A stretch of 51,200 bases of DNA from a virus (lineage: Duplodnaviria; Caudoviricetes). The notes under the pieces were generated by a model. That model searched no databases and was not told the origin of the DNA. It saw only the letters and a program-made list of their open reading frames with translations. The stretch spans positions 1 through 51,200 of IMG/VR virus record IMGVR_UViG_3300032278_004255, one strand, 5' to 3'. This document shows, in pieces, positions 1 through 42,269 of the stretch. Each line of letters opens with the position of its first letter. The stretch's first letter is position 1. The position numbers were made by a program, and so were the translations under genes.

Positions 1-205
1 TCAGCGCTCTTCTGGAGGCGTCATTGAGCTGACTGGCCTGATCCCGCACGGTCCGGGGTGAGGGCGAGACTTCAGGACCGTTGGCGTCACGTGTAGCCCG
101 CTCTCGGGCGCCTCGTGATGCGACAATAAAACGAGAGCTACACACGTAGAAGCCAGAGTAGCGGAACGCTTTCGGACGCGGGTTCGACTCCCGCCGCCTC
201 CACTA
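1..205 (+). ncRNA. ssrA: tmRNA, 3' portion (5' part and tag ORF outside window); prophage integration target
   Basis: Typical tmRNA 3' end: CTACACACGTAGAAG...TTTCGGACGCGGGTTCGACTCCCGCCGCCTCCA(CTA), i.e. T-arm GGTTCGACTCC plus Ala-type acceptor strand. Confidence 0.9.
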
Positions 206-1470
206 GAAATACAGGGGTCAATCGCACCCTCGCCACCATTCCCGCCACCATGGGCGGAGGGCGGCGGGGGCTGCGGTTGGCCGCTAGTCGCTTCACGCAC
301 CGCCTCGAGCTCGACCACCGGCGCGCGCTCGAGGCCGAGCCGGAGAGACCCGACCGCCTCCGAGAGCGCGGTCCACTCCCAGTCGGTGTACCCGTCGACG
401 ACGTCCCCGCGCGCGTTGTGCGTGACGCGCTCGAGCACGTCCTTCCGCGCGCCGTCCGAGCGCGCGAGCGAGATGAACGTGTGCCGGAAGGCGTGGCACG
501 CGCGCCCCTTCTTGGCGCCTGGCTCGCGGTGCGGGATCCCGACTCGCTGGAGATCGCGGTAGAGCGCCTTCACCGCCTGGTTCTGGGTCCGCGGCTGCCC
601 GGTCCGGGGGTCGGGGCAGAGCCAGTCGTCCGGGCTCGGATGTCGGCCGTAGAGCTCGGCGAAGCCCTCGCGTCGCCAGCGCTCGAGGATGTCGGCGAGC
701 GCGGGATGCACCGGGACGAGACGCTCCCGCGTGTCCTCGCCGTCGTCGGCCGTCTTGAGCGGCTGGTCGTCGTACTGGCTGTGGACGAGCAGCGCGCCCA
801 GCCCGGACGTGTCCGTGTCGTAGTCCCGCCAGCGCCGTCCGGACGCTTCGCCCAGACGGAGCCCGCCGAGCCCCATGAGCGCGTAGAACACGCGCCGCCA
901 GTCTGGGATCGCCGGGTCGGTGAGCAACTGCCAGAGCTCCTCACGGCTGAACCGCGGCTTCCGCTTCTTCGCCACCCGCGGCAGCCTCCCCCGCGGGAGG
1001 CTCGCCGGGTTCGTGACGATCACCTCCTCGAATCGGGCGAGCTCGAGCATCGAGCGGAGCACGCCGTGCACGTTGCGGATCGTCTTCGCCGCCAGCTCCC
1101 CCCGGAGGTCCCGGACCATCCCGTCGACCATCTTCGGCGTGAGGTCCTCGACGCGGACGCGGCCGAGCCGGGGACGGATGTGGTTGTCGTAGCAGGCCCT
1201 CGCGTCGTCGAGCGAGCGCATCCCCTCGCGCTCCTTCTCGGCGGTCCAGTAGTCCGCGAGCTCGTCCATGAGCATCCGGGCGTGGGGCCCGCCGTGCACG
1301 TAGGTACCGGCCTTCACCTCGGCGAGCCGCTTCTCGCGGAGGCGCTGCGCGGCGCGCATCGTCGTGCCCGCCGGCTCGTACCGGCGGACCCCGTGCTGGT
1401 CGTAGAAGTTGATCTCGAAGACGGTCTTCCCGCCGATCGAGCGCTTCCGGATGCCGGTCGCCTTCGCCAT
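1..1470 (-). CDS. int: Tyrosine integrase (489 aa; C-terminus reads through attL into antisense tmRNA)
   Basis: Catalytic motifs GLRLGEA, PLKT, HAFRH, THNARGDVVDGY; start MAKATG coupled to xis stop (TGATG). Confidence 0.93.
   Translation of the reverse strand: MAKATGIRKRSIGGKTVFEINFYDQHGVRRYEPAGTTMRAAQRLREKRLAEVKAGTYVHGGPHARMLMDELADYWTAEKEREGMRSLDDARACYDNHIRPRLGRVRVEDLTPKMVDGMVRDLRGELAAKTIRNVHGVLRSMLELARFEEVIVTNPASLPRGRLPRVAKKRKPRFSREELWQLLTDPAIPDWRRVFYALMGLGGLRLGEASGRRWRDYDTDTSGLGALLVHSQYDDQPLKTADDGEDTRERLVPVHPALADILERWRREGFAELYGRHPSPDDWLCPDPRTGQPRTQNQAVKALYRDLQRVGIPHREPGAKKGRACHAFRHTFISLARSDGARKDVLERVTHNARGDVVDGYTDWEWTALSEAVGSLRLGLERAPVVELEAVREATSGQPQPPPPSAHGGGNGGEGAIDPCISSGGGGSRTRVRKRSATLASTCVALVLLSHHEAPESGLHVTPTVLKSRPHPGPCGIRPVSSMTPPEER
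180..203 (+). other. Probable attL core (tmRNA T-arm/acceptor)
   Basis: GGGTTCGACTCCCGCCGCCTCCAC at the host/phage junction; tyrosine integrases commonly recombine here; exact limits unknown without attR. Confidence 0.6.
231..251 (+). repeat. Tandem CGCCACCAT x2 (231-239, 243-251), candidate integrase arm-type sites
   Basis: 9-bp direct repeat with 12-bp period about 30 bp from the att core, inside int. Confidence 0.45.
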
Positions 1471-1745
1471 CAGCCTACCTTCCCCCACGCCATGATCTCG
1501 GCCTCGAGGAAGCGGACCTCTTTCCCGCCGAGCTTCCGGTGGGGGAGGCCCTCACGTCGGGCCCACTTCAGCACGGTCTCTTTGCTCACGCCGAGACGTT
1601 GCCCCGCCTCCTCGGCGGTGAGCAACCGGAGCTCGGGGCGCTCGCGCTCCTCGAGGGCCTTCCGCACGGCGCCGTCGATCAGCTCGCGCAGCGTCGTCAC
1701 GTCGGTGATCACGACGCCGTTGTGCAGATGCTCGAGGTCAGCCAT
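1470..1745 (-). CDS. xis: Excisionase-like HTH protein
   Basis: LLTAEEAGQRLGVSKETVLKWARREGLPHRKLGGKEVRF, HTH_17/MerR-like, directly upstream of int. Confidence 0.85.
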   Translation of the reverse strand: MADLEHLHNGVVITDVTTLRELIDGAVRKALEERERPELRLLTAEEAGQRLGVSKETVLKWARREGLPHRKLGGKEVRFLEAEIMAWGKVG

Positions 1746-2748
1746 GGGCCACCTCACCTCCCTCGGGGATCAGCGGGTACTGGATGCCGCGGCATCGCTC
1801 CTCGATCAGCGGCACATAGTCGGGGTTGAGCTCGATCCCGACTCCTCGCCGGCCGAGTCGCAGCGCCTCCTCCAGCGTCGTCCCGCTGCCGGCGAAGGGG
1901 TCGAGCACGACGCCGTCGGGCGGAGCTCCGGCGAGGATGCAACGCGACGCGAGCGCGCGCGGGAACGTGGCGAAGTGCGCCTCGGTGTAGGGCTCCTGGG
2001 CGATCGTCCAGACCGTGCGCGCGTTGGCGCCGACCGGCCGGCCGTCGTCGTCCACGCGCGGTCGCCGCTCCGGGATGTCCTGGGCGAGGTTGTGGGAGGC
2101 GACCTTGCCGAGGCCGTCCGTTCCCTTGCTGCGCCGCCGCGTGCCGTAGGCGGTCAGCGTCTTCGGCTTGAGCGGAGTCCGAATCGCCTCGGCGTCGTAG
2201 TAGTAGCGGCTGCTCTTCGTCAGGAGAAAGACGTACTCGTGATTCCGGGCGGGGCGGTCGCGGACGGACTCCGGCATCGCGTTCGGCTTCCGCCAGATCA
2301 CGTCGGAGCGGAGCCACCACCCGTCGGCCTGCAGCGCCAGGGCCACGCGCCACGGGACTCCGACGAGGTCTTTCGGCTTGAGCCCCGGCGCGGTCCGATG
2401 CCGTCGCCTGCCGCTCGCTATCGCCGCCTCAGCCGCCACGCGGTGGTTGCGCGAGCTCACCACCGACGAGGTTCCGATGCCGCCGCTCCTCCCGCCCATG
2501 TAGGTGTCGCCGAGGTTCATCCAGAGCGTGCCGTCGGGTCGGAGCACTCGCCGGATGTCGGCGAAGACCGCGACGAGCTCGTCGACGAACGCGTCGGGCG
2601 TCGCCTCGAGGCCGATCTGTCCGGCGACCCCGTAGTCGCGCAGGTTCCAGTACGGCGGGCTGGTCACGACCGTCTGCACGGACTCGTCCTCGAGGTCGGC
2701 CAGGCGCTCGCGCACGTCGCCGACGAGGATGCGGAGGCGCTCCGACAT
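1738..2748 (-). CDS. Beta-class N4-cytosine/N6-adenine DNA methyltransferase
   Basis: Motif IV VTSPPYW precedes motif I VLDPFAGSGTT; HFATFP; start MSERLRILVGD. Confidence 0.92.
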   Translation of the reverse strand: MSERLRILVGDVRERLADLEDESVQTVVTSPPYWNLRDYGVAGQIGLEATPDAFVDELVAVFADIRRVLRPDGTLWMNLGDTYMGGRSGGIGTSSVVSSRNHRVAAEAAIASGRRRHRTAPGLKPKDLVGVPWRVALALQADGWWLRSDVIWRKPNAMPESVRDRPARNHEYVFLLTKSSRYYYDAEAIRTPLKPKTLTAYGTRRRSKGTDGLGKVASHNLAQDIPERRPRVDDDGRPVGANARTVWTIAQEPYTEAHFATFPRALASRCILAGAPPDGVVLDPFAGSGTTLEEALRLGRRGVGIELNPDYVPLIEERCRGIQYPLIPEGGEVAHG

Positions 2749-3458
2749 CACCCCGCCTCGGCCTGGATGCGCTGCATCGTCTCGAGCCAGGTCGTGACGA
2801 CGCTGCTCGCCGCCACCTCGACGCCGTTGGCGTAGAGCACCACCCGCAGCGCTGACATGCTGCTGGTCTCCGGCGCCCGAGGCTTGGTCGGCGCCGCCCG
2901 CGACGGCTTCGCCTTCCGCGCGCGCTTCCGCGCTCCGCCGACGTTCTTCGGCGTGCTCACCGCCTTCTCGGGGCTCATGCGCTTCAGCCGGTAGTAGAGG
3001 GTCGACTCGGTGAGCCCGAGCGCTTTCGCTTCGGGCAGCTCGAGCAGCTCCGCGGCGGTGAGCTCGCGGCCCTTGTACGGGTAGGTCCTTCTCGTCTTCG
3101 GCATCCTCGCCTCCTCGCGCCGATCGGCGCTCTCGTCGGTCTCCGGGGAGGGGCCCGCCTCGGGCTCCTGGTGCTGCTCGGCGGGCTGGTCGGTGGGCTG
3201 CTCCGCACCGCCGAGCAGCATCGAACCGCCGGGGGCGAACCCGCCGGCGAGCTCCACGAGCTCGACGTCCGGCGTCTCCCCGCGGGCGTGAGCCGCGCCG
3301 ATCGGGCAGTCGGTGCAGCCGGCGGCGGCGAGGTGCCTCTGGCCCTTCGCGCCCCGGCCGCCGGCCTCCTTCCGCGCGCGCCGGAAGCGCTGGGTGCAGC
3401 TCGTCCTCGTGAGCTTCGTCGCCAGCCGCTCGCACCGGAACAGCTCGAGTTCAGCCAT
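2748..3458 (-). CDS. Hypothetical protein, N-terminal Cys cluster and C-terminal HTH-like domain
   Basis: C-x11-C...CTDC; C-terminal YKGRELTAAELLELPEAKALGLTESTLYYRLKRMSPEKAV. Confidence 0.7.
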   Translation of the reverse strand: MAELELFRCERLATKLTRTSCTQRFRRARKEAGGRGAKGQRHLAAAGCTDCPIGAAHARGETPDVELVELAGGFAPGGSMLLGGAEQPTDQPAEQHQEPEAGPSPETDESADRREEARMPKTRRTYPYKGRELTAAELLELPEAKALGLTESTLYYRLKRMSPEKAVSTPKNVGGARKRARKAKPSRAAPTKPRAPETSSMSALRVVLYANGVEVAASSVVTTWLETMQRIQAEAG

Positions 3459-6609: not shown

Positions 6610-7229
6610 CCGCCGCTCCCCCGCCGACGAAGCGGCCGAGGCGGCGTCCGCACCGCGCGCGAGACCTCCCAGCCGTACTTCACGAGCCGGACGTAGATGG
6701 TGCTCGCCGCCGCGCGCGCCTCGGGGAGCCGAGCGAGCTGGCCGATCGAGTAGAGCTCGTCGTCCTCCCAGCGCCAGACGAGCGCACTCTGACGGCCGCG
6801 CGCGCCGCGGCCGATGCTGGCGCGCGCCGGGAGCGCCGAGGCCTCGCCAGGCTCGCGTCGCTGGGTGACGCGCTCACCGCGCGGAGCGTGGTCGGGCCGC
6901 ATGGGGCCACGCCCAGCGAGCCAGGCACCCACGAGCTCGGGCGCTTCACCCTCGGCGTGGCCGAAGCGCCCGGCGAGCGCGTCGAGCGCGTCCTCGCCGA
7001 CCGCGACCCGCAGTCGACGGGCGAAGGTCCGGAGCGCGTCGGTTTCGATCTGCCGGATCCTCTCACGCGTCACGCCGAACGCGGCCGCGACGTCCTCGAG
7101 GGCCGCCCCGTCCGGCCAGTTCGATCGGAGCATCTGACAGCGAGCGTCCTCGGCGTACGGGGTCTCGAAGTCGAGGAACGGCTCGTCGGCCTGCTCGTCG
7201 TGCGCGAGCGCTTCGGTTCGGGAGCTCAT
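6606..7229 (-). CDS. Sigma70 region-4 HTH domain protein with a second C-terminal HTH-like domain
   Basis: LEDVAAAFGVTRERIRQIETDAL matches RpoD region 4.2; no region 2; start MSSRTE overlaps recombinase stop. Confidence 0.8.
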   Translation of the reverse strand: MSSRTEALAHDEQADEPFLDFETPYAEDARCQMLRSNWPDGAALEDVAAAFGVTRERIRQIETDALRTFARRLRVAVGEDALDALAGRFGHAEGEAPELVGAWLAGRGPMRPDHAPRGERVTQRREPGEASALPARASIGRGARGRQSALVWRWEDDELYSIGQLARLPEARAAASTIYVRLVKYGWEVSRAVRTPPRPLRRRGSGG

Positions 7230-8494
7230 GAGGTCACCTCCGACAGCTCGGGGATGGCGCGGTCCATGTCGGCCAGGTCGCCGAGGCCGAGCTCGGCGAC
7301 GAGCCTGGCGGCGCGCCGGTAGCGGTTGATCATCGCGCTCGAGCGGTGGCCGGTGCGGTCGGCGACCCAGGTCTCGGTCTTCTCGTTCGCGAGCGCGATC
7401 GTGATGAAGGTCGCGCGGAGGTCGTGGAGCCGGATCGGCTGCCGCGTCGCGCTCCGCTCGTAGAGCTCGGGCCGATCGATCCCGGCGCTCCGGAGCTGCT
7501 CGCGAAACCGCGGCGTTGCACGGCCGTCGCCGCGGGTGATCAGCGGCTCGCCCGCCTCGTCGACGAAGACGCGGCCGTCGCCACCGCGGCGCGCGCGCCA
7601 GGCCCGGAGCGCGCGGGCGCAGTCCGGGCGCAGCGCCCAGGCCCGCGGTTCCCGGGTCTTGTTCTCGACCAGGGCGACCGCGCCGCGCTCGAGGTCCACG
7701 TCCGCCCAGGCCAGGTCGGAGGCCTCGCTCCGCCGCATCCCCTCCCGCGACATGAAGCCGTACAGCAGTCGGAAGTGCAGCGGGATCGAGCGGCAGCCGA
7801 GGAGCGCGCGGTCCTCGTCGGGGTAGAGGAACGTGTAGGCCTTCTCGTCGGTCAGCTTCGGCAGGAACCCCTTGGGCAGCGGGTTCGCCGTGATCACGCG
7901 CGCGGGGAAGTGCGCGAGCGTCAACACGCGCGCCATCACCTGCGCGACGTGTCGGCGCGACGCGGGCGCGAGGTGGGCGGGGAGGCGCTCCATGACGGTG
8001 AGCGCGTGGTCGAGCGTGATCTCCTCGAGAGGGATCGTCCCGATGATCGGGTAGACGTGATTCTCGAGGCGCCGCGCGTCCTGCGTCGCGGTCTTCTTCT
8101 TCTTGATGTGGTCCGGGTACCGGCTCCGCAGCTCGCCGCTCGTCCACGCGTAGCCGAACTCGGCGAAGGTCATCGACGCGACGGGCGGCGGCGCCGCCTC
8201 GCCGGTGCTGAGACGGCGGATCGCCTCGAGCGGGCGCTCGTGCCGGTCATCGCTCCCGCCGAGCAGCTGGAGCAGCGTCCTCGCGAGCTCCGCGCCGACG
8301 GGCTTCTCGGCGTCGCGGAGGAGGCAGGCCTGCTCGGCGAGCAGGCGCGCCCGGGAGCGGGCCTTCTCCTCGTCCTCGACCTCCCGCGGGCAGGTGGTGA
8401 GCTGGACCGTGCACCGCGAGCTCCCGCGGAGGGTCACGATCGCGCGCCAGCATCCGCCGTAGTAGCGGATCGATCCCGTCGCTTGCCGGCTCAC
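7226..8494 (-). CDS. Second tyrosine recombinase/integrase (422 aa)
   Basis: REGMRRSEA, ENKT, HDLRATF, TGHRSSAMINRY: complete R-K-H-R-H-Y set. Confidence 0.92.
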   Translation of the reverse strand: MSRQATGSIRYYGGCWRAIVTLRGSSRCTVQLTTCPREVEDEEKARSRARLLAEQACLLRDAEKPVGAELARTLLQLLGGSDDRHERPLEAIRRLSTGEAAPPPVASMTFAEFGYAWTSGELRSRYPDHIKKKKTATQDARRLENHVYPIIGTIPLEEITLDHALTVMERLPAHLAPASRRHVAQVMARVLTLAHFPARVITANPLPKGFLPKLTDEKAYTFLYPDEDRALLGCRSIPLHFRLLYGFMSREGMRRSEASDLAWADVDLERGAVALVENKTREPRAWALRPDCARALRAWRARRGGDGRVFVDEAGEPLITRGDGRATPRFREQLRSAGIDRPELYERSATRQPIRLHDLRATFITIALANEKTETWVADRTGHRSSAMINRYRRAARLVAELGLGDLADMDRAIPELSEVTS

Positions 8495-20203: not shown

Positions 20204-20341
20204 ATGAACGACCAGCGTCGACGAAGGCGCCGAGTGCGGCGTCACCACCGAACGCGCAGCCGACGGGCGGCGCTTCGGAGGCAGATGCGAGACGCGCTCG
20301 GCGCCCTCGTCGGCGTGCTCCTCTGGAGCCGCAGCCGATGA
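20204..20341 (+). CDS. Small Arg-rich peptide (45 aa)
   Basis: MNDQRRRRRRVRRHHRTRSRR...LGALVGVLLW; ATGA overlap with next gene. Confidence 0.4.
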   Translation: MNDQRRRRRRVRRHHRTRSRRAALRRQMRDALGALVGVLLWSRSR

Positions 20342-21588
20342 AGATTGCAGGCTACGAGACACACCCCGCCGCGGACCTCTTCCCGATGATGGAGGAGGAG
20401 GAGCTCCGCGAGCTCGCGAGCGACATCAAGCGAACCGGCCAGCGGCACGCCGTCGTCGTCATCGGGTCGAAGATCCTCGACGGCCGGAACCGTGTGCGCG
20501 CCTGCGAGATGGTCGGCGTCGAGCCGCGATTCAGCCAGTACGAGGGCCCGAAGGATGTCGCATCCATCCTCGACTACGTCGTCTCGCTGAACCTGTCGCG
20601 CCGGCATCTCTCGGCGAGCCAGCGCGCCTGGCTCGGCGCGCTGCTCGAGGAGAGGTACGCGGAGGCAGGGATCGAGAAGAAGCGCGAGGGGGGCCGCAGG
20701 GGCGGGCAGGCGGCCAAGCATCGGGCCGATCGGCCAAATGCTTCCGAGTCGGACAGTTCCCACCGTTCTCGCGACCGCGCCGCCGCGGCCGTCGGGTCCA
20801 GCGGCAGGTCAGTACAGAAGGCCAAGGCGGTGCGGGAGAAGGCGGCCGACGAGGTTCAGCGGGCCGTCGCGGCCGGCGACCTGACCGTCGACGCCGCGAG
20901 CGAGCTCGCGAAGATCGACGACCACGACACGCAGCGCGAGATCCTCGAGCGGAGCAACGGGAAGCCCGGGAACATCCGCGCCCACATCCGCCAGCACCAG
21001 CAGCGCGAGATCGCGAAGGAGCTCGAGAAGGCGCCGCCCCCGCCTCCGAGCGGGCCGTACCGGGTGATCGTCGCCGACCCGCCGTGGAAGTACGACCTTC
21101 GCGCCACAGACGCGACGCACCGCGGGAACCTCCCGTACCCGCCGATGACCACGGACGCGATCTGCGCGCTCCCGGTGGGTGACCTCGCCGAGGAGGGGTC
21201 GGTGCTCTGGATGTGGGTGACGAACGGTCACCTCCTGGGCTCGGGCGGCGTCAGCGACGGGCTCCGCGTGGTGCACGCCTGGGGCTTCGAGCCGAAGGCG
21301 CTGCTGACGTGGGCGAAGCCGAAGCTCGGCCTCGGGCACTACCTGCGCAACGTGACGGAGCACTGCATCCTCGCGGTGCGCGGCAAGCCGACCATCGTCC
21401 TCGACAACGAGACGACGCTGCTCGAGGCGCCGGTGCGGGAGCACTCGCGGAAGCCCGACGAATTCTACTCGCTCGTCGAGAAGCTCACCCCCGGCTCCAA
21501 GATCGAGCTGTTCGCGCGCGAGCCGCGGGAGGGCTGGGCGGCCTGGGGCGCCGAGGTCGACAAGTTCGCGGGGATGACGTCGCGATGA
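20338..21588 (+). CDS. ParB-like N-domain fused to MT-A70 family N6-adenine methyltransferase
   Basis: HPAADLFP...ILDGRNR...NLSRRHLSASQRA; IVADPPW, EHCILAVRG, HSRKPD, IELFAR. Confidence 0.92.
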   Translation: MKIAGYETHPAADLFPMMEEEELRELASDIKRTGQRHAVVVIGSKILDGRNRVRACEMVGVEPRFSQYEGPKDVASILDYVVSLNLSRRHLSASQRAWLGALLEERYAEAGIEKKREGGRRGGQAAKHRADRPNASESDSSHRSRDRAAAAVGSSGRSVQKAKAVREKAADEVQRAVAAGDLTVDAASELAKIDDHDTQREILERSNGKPGNIRAHIRQHQQREIAKELEKAPPPPPSGPYRVIVADPPWKYDLRATDATHRGNLPYPPMTTDAICALPVGDLAEEGSVLWMWVTNGHLLGSGGVSDGLRVVHAWGFEPKALLTWAKPKLGLGHYLRNVTEHCILAVRGKPTIVLDNETTLLEAPVREHSRKPDEFYSLVEKLTPGSKIELFAREPREGWAAWGAEVDKFAGMTSR

Positions 21589-22756: not shown

Positions 22757-23411
22757 GCCGCAGGACATCAGCGATGCGCTCCAGCGCGTCCTCGCTCGAG
22801 GTCGAGAGACGCTCGCCAGCGAGGAGGAGATCAGAGCGTGGGAGCTTCACCAGGACCGAAGGGACCGGCGCGACCGGCTCGCCGCCTCGGGCGTCGATGA
22901 GCGCCTCGATGCTGCCGGCGCGGCGGCTCTACTCGACGACCGCATGTGGGACACACGCGCCCTCCGGCTGGTTCGTGCCTGGATCGCCTCACCCCGTCCG
23001 GCACTCATGCTCCTCGGAGACCCGGGGCAGGGAAAGACCGTCGCTGCGGCCTGGGCCCTGTCGCGCTGTGCCGGTCGCTACATTCGAGCCAACGAGCTGT
23101 GCGAGCTCAGAGCTTCTCGGTGGCGAGGCCGCGACCGCTACCAGAAGCACCTGACGACCGAGCTGCTCGTCATCGACGAGCTCGGCACCGAGGCCGACAT
23201 CTCGCTTGCTGCTCCCACTCTGCAGGATGTCATCGACGCGCGGCAGCGTCTCCCGCGGCGAACCCTGCTCCTGGGCAACGACCTCGACCTGGTGGCTCGC
23301 TACGACGCGCGCACTCTCGACCGCCTCGGCATCGAGGGGGACGACCACGGGATCGCCATCCTTCGCACCCTCCGCGGCCCATCGCTTCGTGTGGGGGCCC
23401 GTGCCCGCTGA
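22749..23411 (+). CDS. DnaC/IstB-like AAA+ ATPase (helicase loader)
   Basis: Walker A GDPGQGKT, Walker B LLVIDELG, RYDARTLDRL. Confidence 0.85.
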   Translation: MDEPQDISDALQRVLARGRETLASEEEIRAWELHQDRRDRRDRLAASGVDERLDAAGAAALLDDRMWDTRALRLVRAWIASPRPALMLLGDPGQGKTVAAAWALSRCAGRYIRANELCELRASRWRGRDRYQKHLTTELLVIDELGTEADISLAAPTLQDVIDARQRLPRRTLLLGNDLDLVARYDARTLDRLGIEGDDHGIAILRTLRGPSLRVGARAR

Positions 23412-23775
23412 CTTCCCCTACGAGCGCCACGTGGACGCTGCCGAGCAGGAGCGCTACCGCCGGGCCGGCAGGTCGGCCGGCCAGCCCGAGCGACTCCGGC
23501 AGCTCCTCGCTCGCGGCAGTGAGCTCGCGTCCGACGCCCACGCGCCGCCCGGTCGGCCGGTGCAGAGCGGGTCCGCGTGGCTCGACCGGCGGCACCTCTC
23601 CGAGGACCACGAGCGGCTCTCGCCCTGGGTCCCGGCGAACGAGCGCGAGCTGAAGTCGGGCGCGCACCTTGGCGAGGTGACCGGGGGTTGGGTGTGCCTC
23701 GCGCGCAACCTCGAGACCGGCCCCCGCGAGCTCGTGCTCGCGCTCGAGTACGCCGGCCGCGCGGAGGTCGCGTGA
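23401..23775 (+). CDS. Hypothetical protein
   Basis: GTG start overlapping previous gene. Confidence 0.5.
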   Translation: MPADFPYERHVDAAEQERYRRAGRSAGQPERLRQLLARGSELASDAHAPPGRPVQSGSAWLDRRHLSEDHERLSPWVPANERELKSGAHLGEVTGGWVCLARNLETGPRELVLALEYAGRAEVA

Positions 23776-24020
23776 ACACCGACTCGGTCACTCGGACCCT
23801 GGTGTCCCGACTCCGTGCGCTCGAGTACCTGGCGTCCGTCGAGACCAGCCGAGGCGTCGAGGTGGTCGCCGTGCGTCACCCGCAGACGCGCGTCCACGGT
23901 GAGCCCTGGCTGGTCGCCCTCATCTCCACCGCGGACTGGTCGGTCGACTACGCCGTGCCGGTCTACCGGTCTGCCATCGAGGGGGCCGTCGCCGGTGTGC
24001 TGGACGGGGGACGCCGGTGA
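23772..24020 (+). CDS. Hypothetical protein
   Basis: GTGA coupling, GGAGG RBS. Confidence 0.55.
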   Translation: MNTDSVTRTLVSRLRALEYLASVETSRGVEVVAVRHPQTRVHGEPWLVALISTADWSVDYAVPVYRSAIEGAVAGVLDGGRR

Positions 24021-24253
24021 GGCCTGCACCGCCGATCATCGTGAGTCTTGAGCAGGGGCTCGTCGTGGTCCGCATCGGAGTCCTCAGCCTCCACATGTGC
24101 CCGAAGAAGGCGATGGAGGTCGCGAGCTCCATCGCGCACATCAGCTCGGCGGCGCTGGCGGAGGCCGAGGAGCACGCCAGGCTCGCCAAGGAGATCGCAG
24201 CGACGGCCCTCCACGATGCGGTACGGGCGCGCGGCGACGCGGAGGACGAGTAG
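24017..24253 (+). CDS. Hypothetical protein
   Basis: GTGA coupling. Confidence 0.5.
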   Translation: MRPAPPIIVSLEQGLVVVRIGVLSLHMCPKKAMEVASSIAHISSAALAEAEEHARLAKEIAATALHDAVRARGDAEDE

Positions 24254-24901
24254 GTGATCTTCCTGACGGCGGTCGAGGAGCTCCAGGCGTGCCTCTCGGG
24301 GGAGCTCGAGGGGTGGATGGGCGCGCGCTCGTGGCTGGGCGCCTACGTCGACTATGGAGCGGGCGGCGCCCCATCGGGTGGGGACGACAACACCGAGCCG
24401 ACCGCGGCCGCCCTACATGCGGCGCGCGTCATGGACCTCGTCGAGCGCACCCTGCGCGCGCTCCCTCGGTCGCAGGCGGAGATCCTCGTGGAGCGCTACC
24501 GGCCCCGCGGGCCCTACGCGCCCCTGGGGCTTCGCCAGCACTTCGGCGAGCTCGCGCCTGTTGTGGTCCTGCTCGCCTCGCACGCCGAACTCGCCGCGGC
24601 GCTCCTCGAGCACGTCGAGGATGAGGACCTGAGGCGCTGGATGCGCCCCAAGCGAGGTCAGACGTCGAGGGAGGGGCTCGACGCCCTCGGGGGCGCCGAG
24701 CTGCTGCGATTCGTCGTGCGTGGAGCCACGTCCTCGCGTGACCTGCGGCGCCTCGTGAAGTCCGTCCACGGTCACGCAGGGGCCGCTCTCCAAGATGCGC
24801 TCGTGGCCTACCGTGAAGAGCACGAACGCCAGCGCCGAGAGGGTAGGGAGCGGACGCCCTCACGTGCGGCACGTCTCCGAGCGGCCCTGGGGGTCGGGTG
24901 A
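24254..24901 (+). CDS. Hypothetical protein, possible late-gene regulator
   Basis: VERTLRALPRSQAEILVERY; position before late operon. Confidence 0.5.
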   Translation: MIFLTAVEELQACLSGELEGWMGARSWLGAYVDYGAGGAPSGGDDNTEPTAAALHAARVMDLVERTLRALPRSQAEILVERYRPRGPYAPLGLRQHFGELAPVVVLLASHAELAAALLEHVEDEDLRRWMRPKRGQTSREGLDALGGAELLRFVVRGATSSRDLRRLVKSVHGHAGAALQDALVAYREEHERQRREGRERTPSRAARLRAALGVG

Positions 24902-25254
24902 AGGCCTCAGCGGAAAGGGTAGCGGTCGCGGAGGCCGTGGAGATGCTCGGGGCGCCCGACGCGCGCTGGCTGCGCAGGGTCTTGCGGCGGCGGGCGCGGA
25001 CGTGTGGCGCGGAACTCCTGATCAACGAGACTCCCGCGGCCGCTCGGCCGACGTACGTGGTCGACATGGATGCCGTGAGCCAGCACTGCCCCGACCTGAT
25101 CAGCGTCGAGTTCCGCGTCGCTCGCGCGTTGCGGTCGGAGGCGCTCTCGAACCGCACGCAGCTGCGCGCCATCGAGGGCCGTCTCGAGGCGATGCAGGAG
25201 CAGCTCAACATCCTGACCGAGTGCGTCCGGCAGATGCGCCATAGCCCCCGGTGA
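24898..25254 (+). CDS. HTH plus coiled-coil protein
   Basis: VAVAEAVEMLG...WLRRVL; C-terminal heptads. Confidence 0.55.
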   Translation: MKASAERVAVAEAVEMLGAPDARWLRRVLRRRARTCGAELLINETPAAARPTYVVDMDAVSQHCPDLISVEFRVARALRSEALSNRTQLRAIEGRLEAMQEQLNILTECVRQMRHSPR

Positions 25255-25379
25255 ACGACCACCAGCGATTTCTGGCGATCTTTCTACGGCCCGGAAATCA
25301 CGGGGCTTTCGCCTCTATCCGTAGCGGGTGAAGGGCCAAAATGGTCCTTCTGTGGCCCATCGCTGCACCATAAGGGTAG

Positions 25380-26102
25380 ATGCGCTTCACCGTGGACACG
25401 AGCGAGCTCGCTCACCTCGAAGCTGCGCTGGGGCAGCTCTCTCGGAGGGCAATCCCCTACGCGGCGCGAAACACGCTCAACGCGGCCGCCTTCGAGGGGC
25501 GCCGAGCGTGGGTCGCCCAGGTCGAGAAGTCGTTCACGCTGCGGAACAAGTGGACGGCTCGGTCTCTTCGAGTGGTGAAGGCTCGCGGGACCACCATGCG
25601 GGCGATGAGGGCTACGCTCGGCAGCGTGGCCCCCTACATGGCCACCCAGGAGAAGGGCGGCGTGCTGCGCCGCACCGGAAAGCACGGCGTCTCGATCCCG
25701 ACATCCGTGGCGTCTGGAGAGGGCCGCGGCGCCCGCCCGCGCCGCCGGCTGGTTCGGAGGCCGAATCGTCTGCCGAACATTCAGCTCGGCGCCCGAGGGC
25801 TGAGCACGATGTCGAAGCGACAGCGCAACGCGGTCGCAATCTCGCTCGCTCAGCGTGCGGGGAGGAAGTTCGTCTTCCTCGAGTTGGAGAAGCGGAGGGG
25901 CATCTTCCGGATCTCCGGCGGGAAGCGCCGGCCGCGGTTGGACCTCGTCTGGGATCTCACCCACCCCACCGTGCGCATCCCCGAAAGCAACACGCTCGAG
26001 CGCAGCTTGCGCTCGATTCTCCCCACCCTCCCGCGGCTTCAGGAGAAGGCCCTGATGGACCAGATCGCCTTCGTCATGAAGCTGCGCTCGGGCCGCCGGT
26101 AG
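25380..26102 (+). CDS. Basic virion morphogenesis protein (gpZ/tail-completion-like)
   Basis: AIPYAARNTLNAAAF; very Arg-rich; precedes terminase. Confidence 0.6.
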   Translation: MRFTVDTSELAHLEAALGQLSRRAIPYAARNTLNAAAFEGRRAWVAQVEKSFTLRNKWTARSLRVVKARGTTMRAMRATLGSVAPYMATQEKGGVLRRTGKHGVSIPTSVASGEGRGARPRRRLVRRPNRLPNIQLGARGLSTMSKRQRNAVAISLAQRAGRKFVFLELEKRRGIFRISGGKRRPRLDLVWDLTHPTVRIPESNTLERSLRSILPTLPRLQEKALMDQIAFVMKLRSGRR

Positions 26103-26218
26103 GTCTGCATCCCTCGCACGCGTCTCGTCGCGCCGGCCTGACTGGCCGCACTCGCGGTCTTTCGCCGCCTCCCACCCACCCCCCTGCCCAGCGCGCTACA
26201 GTCGGAGCGGATGTCAAC

Positions 26219-26265
26219 GGGTCCTGTGGGATACCCCTCCCCCACCGCGGTTTATTTTCACCACC
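26219..26265 (+). other. Candidate cos site (lambda cosQ heptamer GGGTCCT)
   Basis: ACGGGTCCT then CCGCGGTTTATTTT in the intergenic region just upstream of small terminase, paralleling lambda cos. Confidence 0.55.
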
Positions 26266-37910: not shown

Positions 37911-39947
37911 GTGGCCACCAGCTTCTCCGTCGACGCCGTCTTCCGCGTGGTCGACCGTATGACGCGCCCCATCCGCCGAATGCAAGGCCGGATGGGGCGT
38001 TTCGTCGGTGAGGTGCGCGGAGGCTTCCGCGACCTCGGCCGGTGGGGCGACCGCATCCGGAGCGTCTACCTCGGCGTCGCGGCCGCCGTGCTTGCGGCCA
38101 CCGCCGCCGTGGCCGCCGGACTGCGGCGCGTGATCGAGACCGGGATGGACTTCGACACCGCGATCACCGCGGCCGCCGCGAAGTTCCCAGGAGAGATCCG
38201 TCGAGGCAGCGAGGCCTTCGCCGAGCTCGAGGAGGCGGCCCAGCGCGTGGGGAGCGCGACCGAGTTCACCGCCACCCAGGCGGCCCAGGCGCTCGATTTC
38301 TTGGCCATGGCGGGGTTCAACTCCGAGCAGGCCATCGCGGCCCTGCCGGGCGTGGTCGACCTCGCCACGGCGTCGCAGATGGAGCTCGCCGAGGCGACCG
38401 ACATCGCGTCAGACACTCTCGGCGCGTTCGGCCTGATGACACGGGACACGGCGCAGCTGGGGACCAACCTCGCACGCGTCAACGACGTGCTCGCGCGCAC
38501 TTCGACCTCGGCCAACACCACGGTCGAGCAGATGTTCGAGGCGATCCGCACGGGTGGCGCCGTCGCGCACTCCTCGGGCGCCTCCATCGAGACGTTCAGC
38601 GCGATGCTGGGCGAGCTCGGCAACGCAGGAGTGAAGGGCGCGGAGGCGGGCACGGCGCTGCGGAACGTCTTCCTGCGCCTTCAGAACCCGGCCGCGGCCG
38701 CTCGCCGGCACATCCGCCGGCTGGGGATTCAGACCGTCGACGAGCAAGGGAACTTCCGAGACATCATCGACATCATGGGCCAGTTCGAACAGCGCCTCTC
38801 GGGAATGGGCACTGCGGAGCGCGGGCGCATCCTCGGAGACGTCTTCGGCGCCCGATCGGTGAACGCGGTCAACATCCTGCTCCAGAGCGGCGCTCAGCGC
38901 CTCAACGACTACCGGACCTCCCTCGAGCAGGCGGAGGGAGCCTCGGCCTCGATGGCGGCGACGATGCGCGACACGGCCGGCGGCGACCTCGCGTCGATGA
39001 ACTCGGCGATCGAGGGCTTCTCCCTCCAGGTCTGGGCTCTCATTCGAGGGCCCGTCCGGGGGGTCATCCAGGCCATCACCGAGTGGGTGCGCGCGAACCA
39101 GGACGTGATCTCGAGCGGCATCGAGGACGTGATCCAGTTCCTCACGGCGAACATGCCGACGATCGAGGTGTGGGCTCGGCGAATCGGGATCGCGGTGGCC
39201 ATCGTCGGCACGCTGCTCCTGCTGACGATGGCGGCGTTCGTCGCGGTGATCGTCGCGGTGCCGGCCCTGATCGTCGGCGTCGTGAGTCTCCTGGTGGCCG
39301 CGTGGGAGTGGATCTCCGAAGCCGCGAGCTCGGCGGCTGCGTGGATCGGCGAGGCCTTCGGAGGGGTCTGGGACTCGATTCGAGACTTCGGGATCGCCGT
39401 GCTCGAGTTCGTCGTCGGCTTCTTCGTGCTCCTGCGACGGCAGGCCACGACGCTGCTCCGGCCGGTGATCGACTGGATGGCGGGCGCGGCGGCCTGGATC
39501 GCCGAGCGCTGGCGTCCGATCGGCGCGTTCTTCGGCGCCCTCTGGGCCGGGATCACGACGGCGTTCTCAGGGGCTTGGGACGGGCTGATGAAGCAGGCGG
39601 TGGCCATGTACAGCCGATTCCTCGCCATCTGGCGGCCTCTCCGAGCCTTCTTCGCCAGCCTCTGGAGCGGGGTCGCCCAGCTGTTCGACAGCACCCTCGG
39701 CGGCATCCTCGACCACATCGGCGGGGTGGTCGAGAACGTGCGCGGCGTCGGCCGATCGGAGCTCGACGGTGACGCTCCGCCGCCGTCGGTGGTCAGCCCC
39801 GAGGCGCGCGTCGCGCGCTCCATCTCGGAGAGCACCAGCACCGAGAGGGCCGAGATCACCGTCCGCGCCGGCGACGGTGCTTCGGCCGAGGTGACGCGCC
39901 GCCCGCGAGGCAACACGCTCCTCGTTCCCGCTTCGGGTGCGACGTGA
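37911..39947 (+). CDS. Tape measure protein (TP901 core)
   Basis: TEFTATQAAQALDFLAMAG, GVKGAEAGTALRN; Trp/Phe-periodic repeats. Confidence 0.93.
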   Translation: MATSFSVDAVFRVVDRMTRPIRRMQGRMGRFVGEVRGGFRDLGRWGDRIRSVYLGVAAAVLAATAAVAAGLRRVIETGMDFDTAITAAAAKFPGEIRRGSEAFAELEEAAQRVGSATEFTATQAAQALDFLAMAGFNSEQAIAALPGVVDLATASQMELAEATDIASDTLGAFGLMTRDTAQLGTNLARVNDVLARTSTSANTTVEQMFEAIRTGGAVAHSSGASIETFSAMLGELGNAGVKGAEAGTALRNVFLRLQNPAAAARRHIRRLGIQTVDEQGNFRDIIDIMGQFEQRLSGMGTAERGRILGDVFGARSVNAVNILLQSGAQRLNDYRTSLEQAEGASASMAATMRDTAGGDLASMNSAIEGFSLQVWALIRGPVRGVIQAITEWVRANQDVISSGIEDVIQFLTANMPTIEVWARRIGIAVAIVGTLLLLTMAAFVAVIVAVPALIVGVVSLLVAAWEWISEAASSAAAWIGEAFGGVWDSIRDFGIAVLEFVVGFFVLLRRQATTLLRPVIDWMAGAAAWIAERWRPIGAFFGALWAGITTAFSGAWDGLMKQAVAMYSRFLAIWRPLRAFFASLWSGVAQLFDSTLGGILDHIGGVVENVRGVGRSELDGDAPPPSVVSPEARVARSISESTSTERAEITVRAGDGASAEVTRRPRGNTLLVPASGAT

Positions 39948-41233
39948 GCTGGGAGGACCGGATCCGGGAGGCGGCCTACACGTCTCCGAGCGGAACCCGC
40001 CGCGTCTTCGCCTTCGAGGCCGTCTCCGCCGAGGTCGAGCTCCGAGCGAAGGCCTTTGAGTTCCCCGGGGTCAACGCCACCTACGTCCAAGGCAACGGCC
40101 ACGGGGGGAAGCGCTTCCCGCTGAGGTGCTTCTTCGCTGGCGACGAACACGACCTCGAGGCGGAGGCGTTCGTCGAGGGGCTGCTCGAGCGCGGGGTAGG
40201 GCGGCTCGAGCACCCCTTCTACGGCATCCACGACGTGGTGCCCCTGGGGACGATCACGCGCCGAGACGACCTGAAGGACGCGGCGAACCAGACCGTGATC
40301 GAGGTGACGCTCGCCGTCTCGCTCACCCAGGTCTATCCGACCCTCCGCCCCAGTCGCTCGGCGGAGGTGTCGGCGTCGCTGCGAGCCCTCGACGAGGCCA
40401 GCAGCCAGCAGTTCCAGGACGCGCTGGACCTGAGCACCGCCGCCGCGCGCGCGAGCCAGGAGAGCGCCGTCCGCGCCTCGCTCGCCGCTGCGAGCTCCAC
40501 GCTCGCCGACATCGCGGCCGGCGTCGACGACGTGCGCGACGCGTTCCGAGACGCCCAGGACGCCGTGAACCTCGGCCTCGACGTGCTAATCGGACAGCCG
40601 CTGCAGCTCGCGCAGAGCATCGCCAACCTCGTCCGTGCTCCGGCGCGGTCGGACGTGGCGATCCGTTCCCGGCTCGAGGGATACGGAGACTTCCTCGAGC
40701 GCATCGTCACCGCGCCCTCCGCGCGCCCGGGCGACGCCTTCCTCAGCGGCGTGGTCCTTCCGGGGCGGCGCCGGGTGGTCTCCAACGACTTTCACACCGC
40801 CGTCGTCTTCGCTGTGCAAGGGGTCGCTGGGAGCGTCGAGAGCGTTCTGAATCACCGCTTCCCGGACCGACCCGCCGCCCTGGCAGCGGCGGAGACTCTT
40901 CTCGCGCAGCTCGACCGAGTGGTGCCGTGGATGGAGGAGGGGTTCGGCGAGCTCGCGGAGGCCGGCGCGCCCGCAAGCGTCGACACGGGCGGCACCTACC
41001 AGGCGCTGCAGGAGGCCGTCGCCGTGGCCGCGGGCTTCCTCGTCGACATCTCGTTCACCCTGCTTCCGCAGAGGCGGGTGGTGCTCGACCGACCCCGCAC
41101 GATCATCGACCTCGCGGCCGAGTTCTACGGAGAGGTCGACGCTCGGCTGGACTTCATCCTGCAGACCAACGACCTGAGCGGGGCCGAGATCCTTGAGCTC
41201 CCGCGCGGGCGGGAGTTCGTCTTCTATGCCTGA
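39944..41233 (+). CDS. Mu gpN-like DNA circularisation/baseplate protein
   Basis: SWEDRIREAAY, FEFPG, GRLEHPFYG, C-terminal LysM-like LAAEFYG. Confidence 0.85.
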   Translation: MSWEDRIREAAYTSPSGTRRVFAFEAVSAEVELRAKAFEFPGVNATYVQGNGHGGKRFPLRCFFAGDEHDLEAEAFVEGLLERGVGRLEHPFYGIHDVVPLGTITRRDDLKDAANQTVIEVTLAVSLTQVYPTLRPSRSAEVSASLRALDEASSQQFQDALDLSTAAARASQESAVRASLAAASSTLADIAAGVDDVRDAFRDAQDAVNLGLDVLIGQPLQLAQSIANLVRAPARSDVAIRSRLEGYGDFLERIVTAPSARPGDAFLSGVVLPGRRRVVSNDFHTAVVFAVQGVAGSVESVLNHRFPDRPAALAAAETLLAQLDRVVPWMEEGFGELAEAGAPASVDTGGTYQALQEAVAVAAGFLVDISFTLLPQRRVVLDRPRTIIDLAAEFYGEVDARLDFILQTNDLSGAEILELPRGREFVFYA

Positions 41234-42269
41234 GCGCCTCGAAGAGGTCGCGCTGCGGATCGCCGCTCAGCGCTGGCTGGCCTGGGAGGACTTCGAGCTC
41301 AGCGTCTCCATCGACCGTCCCGCGACCGTGGGATTCGTGTCGCCGTTCGAGCCCGATCGCCCGGGGTTTCGGGAGGCCTTCGCCCCGCTCGCGTTCACAC
41401 CGATCTCCGTCGAGATCGGGGAAGAGGTGGTGTTCAACGGTACGCTCGTGGACATCACGCCGAAGCGCACCCCAGACGAGCGAACGGTGGAGGTGGCAGG
41501 CTACTCGTTCCCCGCGGTCCTCGGTGACTGCGCGCCGCCCGCGAGCGCCTTCCCGCTCGAGCTCAACGGCTTGAAGCTGAGCAGGATCGCCGAGACGCTC
41601 GTCGCCCCGTTCGGGCTGGACGTGGTGATGGACGCCGACGAGGGCGCTGCGTTCCGACGAGTCGCAGCGAAGCCGGACCAGGCGATCTTCAGCTTCCTCA
41701 TGGAGCTCGCGCAGCAGAGAGGGCTGGTGATCGGCGACACGCCTGCCGGGGCCCTGCGCTTCCTGCGGTCGGCGCCGGGCGGCTCACCAGTCGCTGCGTT
41801 CCGCGAGGGCCAGCCCCCGTTGCTCAGCGTCGAGCCGCGGTTCTCGCCGCAGCAGTACTACAGCGAGGTGACGGCGATCGCGAAGACGCGCGCGGGCCGG
41901 ACGGGCCAGAGCTACACGGTCTCGAACCCGTTCCTCGCCAACGAGGTCCGCCCACACACCTTCGTGCTGGGCGACACCGACGACCCGGACCTTCCGACCG
42001 CCGCGCGAGCGAAGCTTGGCCGGATGCTCGGCAACGCGCTCGCCGTCACGCTCGAGCTGCCGACCTGGCGCAACCCGGGCGGCGCGCTGTGGTGGCCGAA
42101 TCAGACGATCCTGCTCGAGGCACCCGGGGCGATGATCTACCGCGAGACCGAGTTCCTGATCCGTGACGTGTCCCTCCGCCAGACCGCGGAGGCGCAGATC
42201 GCCAAGATAGAGGTCGTGCTCCCGGGCGCGTTCTCTGGCGAGGTGCCGGAGTTTCTCCCATGGGTCTGA
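41226..42269 (+). CDS. Mu gpP-like baseplate hub
   Basis: WEDFELSVSID, ELAQQRGL, WRNPGGALWWPN. Confidence 0.85.
   Translation: MPERLEEVALRIAAQRWLAWEDFELSVSIDRPATVGFVSPFEPDRPGFREAFAPLAFTPISVEIGEEVVFNGTLVDITPKRTPDERTVEVAGYSFPAVLGDCAPPASAFPLELNGLKLSRIAETLVAPFGLDVVMDADEGAAFRRVAAKPDQAIFSFLMELAQQRGLVIGDTPAGALRFLRSAPGGSPVAAFREGQPPLLSVEPRFSPQQYYSEVTAIAKTRAGRTGQSYTVSNPFLANEVRPHTFVLGDTDDPDLPTAARAKLGRMLGNALAVTLELPTWRNPGGALWWPNQTILLEAPGAMIYRETEFLIRDVSLRQTAEAQIAKIEVVLPGAFSGEVPEFLPWV

Follow-up and report, generated by a model that had tools for sequence, protein, structure and literature searches.

Where does an integrase gene end when its own attachment site lies inside it? The question is raised by the first gene of IMG/VR record IMGVR_UViG_3300032278_004255, the 51,200 nucleotides (nt) of which are referred to here as the window. 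This record is a metagenome-derived fragment of 51.2 kb that begins inside a transfer-messenger RNA (tmRNA) gene, ssrA. A tyrosine integrase gene (int) on the minus strand runs toward the tmRNA, remains open through the attachment (att) site, and continues into the antisense strand of the RNA gene. With a probability of roughly 0.8, the window holds the left part of a prophage with a contractile tail, which a tyrosine integrase of the Mx8 type inserted at the tmRNA 3' end of a marine Myxococcota host, with the phage attachment site (attP) inside int and a tail of the integrase protein (Int) that switches with integration.

The int open reading frame (ORF) in its prophage form encodes 489 amino acids (aa), and its C-terminal stretch reads ...PCISSGGGGSRTRVRKRS...TPPEER*. 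Approximately 67 int codons fall within nucleotides 4-205, and 59 of them (residues 431-489, nucleotides 4-180) lie beyond a 21-base-pair (bp) core common to the att sites. The same tail had been quoted in an initial annotation made from the letters of the window, and its claim that int is open through the attachment site, with a stop at 3-1, holds; Rfam places the tmRNA at 1-205. Int matches the PHROG_1 integrase family over residues 11-373 (E 1.6e-42), and the Pfam Phage_integrase match of 17.8 bits is under the cut-off of that model. Residues R205, K239, H326, R329, H351, and Y361 make up the catalytic set of a tyrosine recombinase, and none of them varies across alignments of 10, 14, and 15 relatives. 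All are encoded upstream of the core and of the tmRNA overlap, as first annotated, with the codon of the catalytic tyrosine (Tyr) at 388-390. Homology among the aligned relatives fades approximately 30 residues past Tyr.

The int frame is identical, without indels, in four assemblies, which include the relatives G001, G002, and G003 described below. A 903-nt contig from an independent sequencing run (X2) spans positions 35-937 with one substitution and no gap. A sequencing error hiding a stop codon, a possibility named in the initial annotation, is excluded by these assemblies together with the X2 contig.

Three relatives were used to compare the att sites. G001 is a Myxococcota metagenome-assembled genome (MAG) in which Int is 98% and the terminase 100% identical to the window. 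G002 is a Polyangia MAG with an Int 69% identical to the window. G003 is a linear IMG/VR contig of 67.6 kb (CheckV 96% complete) with an Int 95% identical. Pattern searches located the left prophage site (attL) and a second att copy 60.4 kb downstream on the same contig in G002, attL and an att copy at the end of another contig in G001, and a single att copy in G003. The left arm of the G003 site is without a tmRNA body and shares 90% identity over 229 nt with the phage arm of the right prophage site (attR) of G001, while its P' arm and int are 93% identical over 1,530 nt to the window. Because the arms match the phage side on the left and the window int on the right, the G003 site is in the attP configuration. 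The attP sites of G001 and G002 were rebuilt by joining the phage arms of attR and attL.

The core was delimited by placing side by side the attL sites (window, G001, G002), the attP site (G003), and the attR sites (G001, G002). The block of identity begins after GCGG/GAGT/GCCT and ends at CCA. This core, GTTCGACTCCCGCCGCCTCCA, spans the T-loop, the 3' strand of the T-stem, and the 3' strand of the acceptor up to the discriminator. No second copy of the att 23-mer was found in the window within 3 mismatches, and no repeat of window positions 1-320 longer than 15 nt occurs elsewhere in the window. ARAGORN calls nothing in the window because the tmRNA gene is truncated at its 5' end by the start of the record. 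Close relatives L012 and L004 have a complete tmRNA at the equivalent place (ARAGORN); in L012, a 98% relative, it is 363 nt long with the tag ANDNALALAA.

The attL forms of Int (window, G001, G002) and the attP forms (G003, rebuilt G001 and G002) part directly after ...GGGGSRT. In G003, the core occupies codons 424-430 and is followed by 79 codons into the P arm, for a total of 509 aa. This attP form reads ...GGGGSRT-LGRIVPT...PPRD, and its stop codon lies 42 nt before a convergent gene of 394 aa. The tails that follow ...SRT in the rebuilt attP forms of G001 and G002 resemble that of G003 in kind and are 76 and 84 aa in length. The prophage-form tails, which are antisense to tmRNA, are 59 aa in the window and in G001 and 28 aa in G002. 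The initial annotation had proposed different isoforms in the free phage and the prophage. At the sequence level the tails do differ (59 versus 79 aa after the core), and none of the three attP forms, which also stand in for the attP of the window, yields the prophage C-terminus. The features of the locus and of the rest of the window are collected in the table.

Table. Coordinates of the integrase locus and of other features in the window (pLDDT, predicted local distance difference test score).
Feature	Position	Strand	Remarks
Integrase ORF, prophage (attL) form, 489 aa	1..1470	-	ATG 1470-1468, alternative GTG 1488; stop TGA at 3-1
Conserved integrase body, residues 1-392	295..1470	-	Predicted N-terminal beta-sheet-plus-helix domain, core-binding domain, catalytic domain
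Int residues 393-423, P' arm-encoded	203..294	-	Predicted disordered, atypical codon composition
Swapped prophage-form tail, residues 431-489, 59 aa	4..180	-	Antisense strand of host tmRNA; pLDDT 28-39, no secondary structure
3' part of host tmRNA gene (ssrA)	1..205	+	Rfam RF00023, 81.4 bits, E 4.8e-32, model positions 150-374 of 374
att core, 21-bp identity block GTTCGACTCCCGCCGCCTCCA	182..202	.	Common to attL, attR, attP; Int residues 424-430 (GGGGSRT) on minus strand
Two direct CGCCACCAT copies, candidate arm-type Int sites of P' arm	231-239, 243-251	+	+49, +61 from core; minus-strand peptide GGGNGG
Small HTH_17 (Xis/AlpA-like) gene	1470..1745	-	Pfam HTH_17 E 2.5e-12; directly upstream of int
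N6_N4_Mtase DNA methyltransferase	1741-2748	-	Pfam E 2.7e-49; directly upstream of xis-like gene and int
861-aa open frame, spurious	250-2835	+	Antisense to int, xis-like gene, methyltransferase
Second tyrosine recombinase gene	7226-8491	-	PHROG_1 E 2.4e-28; Pfam Phage_integrase E 1.7e-15
ParB-like/methyltransferase fusion	20338-21585	+	PHROG_359 E 2.9e-60

Read as a mechanism, the last conserved helix of Int would end approximately 30 codons past Tyr361, and translation would go on through the P' arm, the 21-bp core, and the DNA beyond. In the attP state, the phage P arm would append 79 aa (G003) with a predicted helical hairpin at their end. In the prophage state, the antisense strand of tmRNA would append 59 unrelated residues that are predicted to be disordered. 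Integration and excision would toggle Int between two isoforms that share a catalytic body and differ in their tails. The Mx8 case suggests by analogy that Int in the lysogen may change in activity or specificity once the phage-form tail is lost.

The layout was followed through the family by searching 401 Myxococcota genomes, of which 12 contain an Int homologue at E <= 1e-40, in 18 places. An RNA gene lies antisense at the int 3' end in nine of the 18 places by ARAGORN (tmRNA in eight and tRNA-Asp in one). Together with the window and L004, these nine make 11 attL-type loci, and in all 11 there is no stop codon before the RNA gene; the ORF ends 49-265 nt inside the tmRNA or tRNA-Asp. Two reading frames are used across the tmRNA end, one reading ...GGGG(S/N)RT... 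and the other ...VEAPGVEPGS.... Among the remaining nine places, three run off the available DNA, one is a fragment (L028), two stop early (L026 and L029), and three are long-tailed (L013, L019, and L024). Seven of nine further relatives from IMG/VR are also long-tailed, several with motifs resembling the antisense of a T-loop.

The stop codons between 30 codons past Tyr and the RNA end were counted at nine non-redundant loci of 44-71% GC. None of the 325 int-frame codons is a stop, compared with 8 and 18 stops in the other two frames. Multiplied together, the per-locus shuffle P values for the absence of stops give 1e-6, computed as if the loci were independent of shared ancestry. For the window alone (68-71% GC), shuffling gives a probability of about 0.3-0.5 that no stop occurs from Tyr to the tmRNA end.

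The three long-tailed places (L013, G050:C13; L019, G323:C14; L024, G050:C2) contain a core-like motif, ...GGGGGNR... or ...WESN..., followed by sequence that is not tmRNA, and no RNA gene is called there. Degraded sites, or attP-type junctions between tandem elements, may account for them.

The composition of the int frame changes past the conserved body. In the 95% relative G003, the GC content at third codon positions (GC3) is 0.93-1.0 up to 30 codons past Tyr, 0.40-0.67 through the P' arm and core, and 0.80-0.93 in one block of the P arm. The two direct CGCCACCAT copies of the P' arm lie at equal offsets in the window, G001, G002, and G003, across Int identities of 69-98%. The P arms of G003, G001, and G002 have an inverted CGCCACCAT pair at -124/-111. 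Only four CGCCACCAT copies are present in the whole window, counting both strands. These repeats are taken as candidate arm-type Int sites, which fits the predicted N-terminal sheet-plus-helix domain of Int. Constraint at the protein level was considered for the peptides GGGNGG and MVA(T/A)RHHLE and was rejected, as both coincide with CGCCACCAT/ATGGTGGCG repeats.

AlphaFold models of both forms score the body, up to residue 380, at pLDDT 80-97. The phage form falls below 50 over residues 381-463, and two helices at 465-481 and 485-498 score 61-81. The alignment contains no homologous rows for this hairpin (465-498), so that its pLDDT derives from that sequence alone. All of residues 382-489 of the prophage form score below 50, with no secondary structure. 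Given the predicted disorder, the near-neutral evolution described below, and the coincidence of the "conserved" peptides with CGCCACCAT repeats, most of the tail appears to be translated attP and not a conserved domain.

The int architecture, the exchange of tails, the homology with Mx8 Int, and the open frame at related attL loci can be read directly from the sequences compared here. It is possible, though less likely than not, that an Mx8-like clade in Myxococcota keeps the frame open across attP by selection and that the tail exchange is a conserved integration-state switch. An effect of tail loss is favored by the avoidance of stops across the family and by the Mx8 precedent, and is opposed by the near-neutral evolution of the tails, their variable length, and the short-tailed relatives.

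Two groups of observations weigh against the reading of int as a gene whose tail switches with integration. The first group concerns the attP state. The attR of the window lies outside the record, so that its attP is deduced from relatives. The attR of G001 is on a separate contig of the MAG, with the risk of a binning error. The window terminase as a query gives no match in G003, which is mosaic relative to the window. An attempt to read G003 as a circularly permuted free genome failed, as its last 3 kb correspond to window positions 23250-26264 and its first 451 nt to 39604-42251, and these ends are not adjacent in the gene order of the window. The attP-type site of G003 could be a junction between tandem elements instead of part of a free phage genome.

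The second group concerns the tails. L026 and L029 stop 25 and 32 codons past Tyr, and among the nine IMG/VR relatives L033 and L037 stop 33 and 29 codons past Tyr, so a long tail is not required in every member. The prophage tail ranges from 16 to 88 codons across loci. The ratio of nonsynonymous to synonymous change (pN/pS) between G003 and G001 is 0.11 in the body, 0.33 in the P' arm tail, and 0.48 beyond the core, which indicates that the tails are weakly constrained. Against G002, the corresponding values are about 0.5 (saturated), 0.92-1.08, and 0.82-0.95. A family-wide C-terminal module was sought by all-versus-all blastp of eight attP-form tails and was rejected; matches occur only within G003, G001, and G002 (E 2e-8 to 7e-42), and the best Mx8 match has E 0.04. 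A family-wide hairpin module was likewise rejected, as a profile hidden Markov model (HMM) searched against 3,526 six-frame ORFs has a best match of E 0.15 that is not in an int tail.

These tail data suit the strongest alternative, in which the read-through is a harmless by-product. The body of approximately 390 residues would be functional by itself, the frame would be open from the scarcity of stops in GC-rich DNA and from att arms that are constrained as DNA, and the tails would be junk. This account is quite possible, at somewhat less than even odds. It is consistent with the shuffling result for the window alone and with the 861-aa frame antisense to int, which is judged spurious because such ORFs are expected at about 71% GC, where open frames alone mean little. 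It also accommodates the fall of GC3 from 0.93-1.0 to 0.40-0.67, a tail pN/pS near 1 against G002, tails predicted to be disordered and not homologous across the family, the coincidence of the GGGNGG and MVATRHH peptides with DNA repeats, and the four short-tailed relatives. It is harder to reconcile with the complete lack of stops among the 325 int-frame codons of nine loci with GC as low as 44%, where the other frames contain 8 and 18 stops and the P product is 1e-6. The close-pair pN/pS beyond the core is 0.48 and not 1, and the helical hairpin is predicted in the phage form only. The tail swap also alters the specificity of the homologous Mx8 enzyme, according to a review (PMC6070905).

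The block of the P arm that begins MVATRHHLE... invites a second alternative, that it is a separate small gene downstream of int, merely in the same frame, with no gain to Int. The block starts with ATG, has the raised GC3 of 0.80-0.93, and is predicted to form the helical hairpin. Its protein is 100% identical between G003 and G001, with two changes in 34 codons that are both synonymous. Against this, no stop separates the block from int in any of the three attP forms, and no convincing ribosome-binding site is present upstream of the ATG. The ATG itself lies within an inverted repeat, ATGGTGGC...GCCACCAT, whose DNA is conserved in G002 at an equal offset, and a search of the other loci (3,526 six-frame ORFs) with the block HMM gives no counterpart, the best match (E 0.15) being outside any int tail. 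A separate gene is improbable. Still less probable is an artefact of sequencing or assembly, or a decaying prophage that lost the stop of its int: the record is a metagenome-derived fragment beginning inside tmRNA, as such an account would have it, but the same frame is found in G001, G002, G003, and the X2 contig, the Int body is under purifying selection (pN/pS 0.11-0.15), and the terminase, portal, protease, head, sheath, tape-measure, and baseplate genes look intact.

Several further observations concern the att region. The integration module (int, attP, and early region) is 75-95% identical between G003 or G002 and the window, and no match to the window terminase was found there with this query. 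The P-arm homology between G003 and G001 ends 229 nt from the right end of the core, near the end of the int ORF. The int gene and attP seem to travel together as a single mosaic unit. On the host side of attR, the int frame runs open to the contig ends, for 47-55 codons (L008, the G001 attR, and L007, the G002 attR). An orphan ORF with the phage-form tail could exist in lysogens, and an open frame is uninformative at this GC content. A search of Logan contigs of sequencing runs gave no joints and no recognisable contig with attP or the bacterial site attB; these contigs break in the conserved tmRNA 3' end.

On the tmRNA side, the 3' junction in the lysogen reads CCTCCA-CTA. The CCA end is not encoded, and the tmRNA 3' end must therefore be completed post-transcriptionally. 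The G001 attR has TCT after CCTCCA, probably the native trailer. A hairpin supplied by the phage lies directly after the tmRNA 3' end (window 203-232 on the plus strand; 1524-1553 in both L004 and L006). Its stem is GGGGATC/GATCCCC in G002 and GGGGT/ACCCC in the others. A robust hairpin at this place was rejected, as the z values in three relatives are -0.09, -3.14, and 0.04, and only the G002 hairpin (-3.14) is better than its shuffles. A scan of window positions 1-2000 found no promoter or terminator. As the initial annotation supposed, int transcription might also yield RNA antisense to tmRNA. An RNA sequencing run (X14) contains a 215-nt contig identical to positions 1-203 and nothing over 251-1500, and its contigs carry no strand. 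This contig is most simply the tmRNA itself and says nothing on int expression or antisense RNA.

Elsewhere, the stop codon of the HTH_17 gene overlaps the int start (ATGA). The second tyrosine recombinase may serve as another integrase, as a dimer-resolution enzyme, or as an invertase. The rest of the window contains genes for the large terminase, portal, protease, major head protein, sheath, tape measure, and baseplate, all intact-looking.

If the integration-state switch is real, the phage form would consist of a small helical module on a disordered tether of roughly 85 residues of translated attP. Integration at tmRNA or tRNA-Asp would swap in an arbitrary antisense-encoded sequence and re-tune Int in the lysogen without a dedicated regulator, for example toward less re-integration or an altered choice of site. 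Whatever the function of the tails, the range of an Mx8 oddity, an int that contains its own attachment site, grows from one or two cultured Myxococcus phages to take in uncultured marine Myxococcota. The tmRNA becomes a second target for the Mx8-type layout, and this layout recurs in every related attL locus examined. The anatomy offered here includes a 21-bp core, translated candidate arm repeats, a disordered linker, and a helical end in the phage form only, the last two as predicted. Gene callers and island finders should expect integrase ORFs of this kind to overlap tmRNA or tRNA genes, and integration vectors made from such integrases must carry int and attP as a single unit.

The nearest known system is that of Mx8. 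Mx8 Int is at the top of 185 matches to Int among 50,697 phage records (tblastn; 34.1% identity over residues 22-380, E 1e-41), and none of the 185 covers 80% of Int. Mx8 Int matches the G003 form of Int by blastp with E 8e-51. The homology stops at ...KLKLEL / ...SLRLGL, approximately 20 residues past Tyr. The Mx8 gene is called intP in the phage and intX in the prophage. The record of Mx8 intP has the core at nt 2387-2415 of a coding sequence (CDS) at 1154-2755, which corresponds to codons 412-421 of 533 with 112 residues beyond the core. The parallel with Mx8 drawn in the initial annotation is thus more than an analogy: the two enzymes are homologous, and the crossover is annotated inside intP.

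The two systems share a crossover core inside the int ORF, tens of codons past the catalytic Tyr (codons 412-421 of 533 in Mx8 and 424-430 of 509 here), a core that is the antisense of the T-arm and acceptor 3' end of a tRNA-like gene, and a small helix-turn-helix gene overlapping the int start. This gene is uoi in Mx8, and Uoi has a weak similarity to the HTH_17 protein of the window (E 0.006 over 21 aa). They differ in target, which is tRNA-Asp in Mx8 and tmRNA here, with one relative (L025) at tRNA-Asp. They also differ in the length replaced: 112 aa beyond the core in Mx8, compared with 79 aa exchanged for 59 aa here. The replacement tail of the Mx8 prophage is said to be 13 residues long, a figure attributed to Tojo et al. 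1996. The tails are without detectable homology, and the host here is an uncultured marine Myxococcota bacterium. Mx9 reportedly also has attP within int; no match to Mx9 Int is listed among the phage records searched with Int. In both Mx8 and the present system integration replaces the Int C-terminus. The review states for Mx8 that attP is within int and that integration creates a new 3' end, which changes the specificity of Int but does not inactivate it; Mx9 is said there to follow a similar principle (PMC6070905). No description of an Mx8-like integrase reading into tmRNA was found in the open-access literature searched.

Integrases of SSV also extend across attP, as those of Mx8 do, according to the Islander paper (PMC4383910), and a second source places attP within the ORF of SSV-type archaeal integrases (PMC7253208). 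Integration splits the int of these "suicidal" integrases into two separated parts. The prophage Int ORF described here is not split; its catalytic body is contiguous with the start codon, and only the far C-terminal tail is exchanged.

In mycobacteriophage BPs, the gene concerned encodes the repressor, and the part lost on integration carries an ssrA-like degradation tag. For BPs and its relatives, one paper describes an attP inside a phage gene and a change of the C-terminus and behaviour of the product on integration (PMC4557955). Unlike in this integration-dependent immunity, the interrupted ORF here is int and not a repressor gene, and neither tail carries an ssrA-like tag of the AA type (the endings are PPRD, GGER, RGRR, PEER, and LSRR).

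Heterobivalent integrases of the lambda type resemble Int in the predicted N-terminal domain of a three-strand sheet and a helix, and in the repeated 9-mers at fixed offsets in both arms, which are candidate sites here. The attP of lambda lies outside int. Islander islands resemble the present element in the extent of the attachment site. The attP here spans approximately 230 bp of P arm and 70 bp of P' arm, compared with roughly 250 bp quoted for islands in the Islander paper, where targeting of the tmRNA 3' end is also described as common (PMC4383910).

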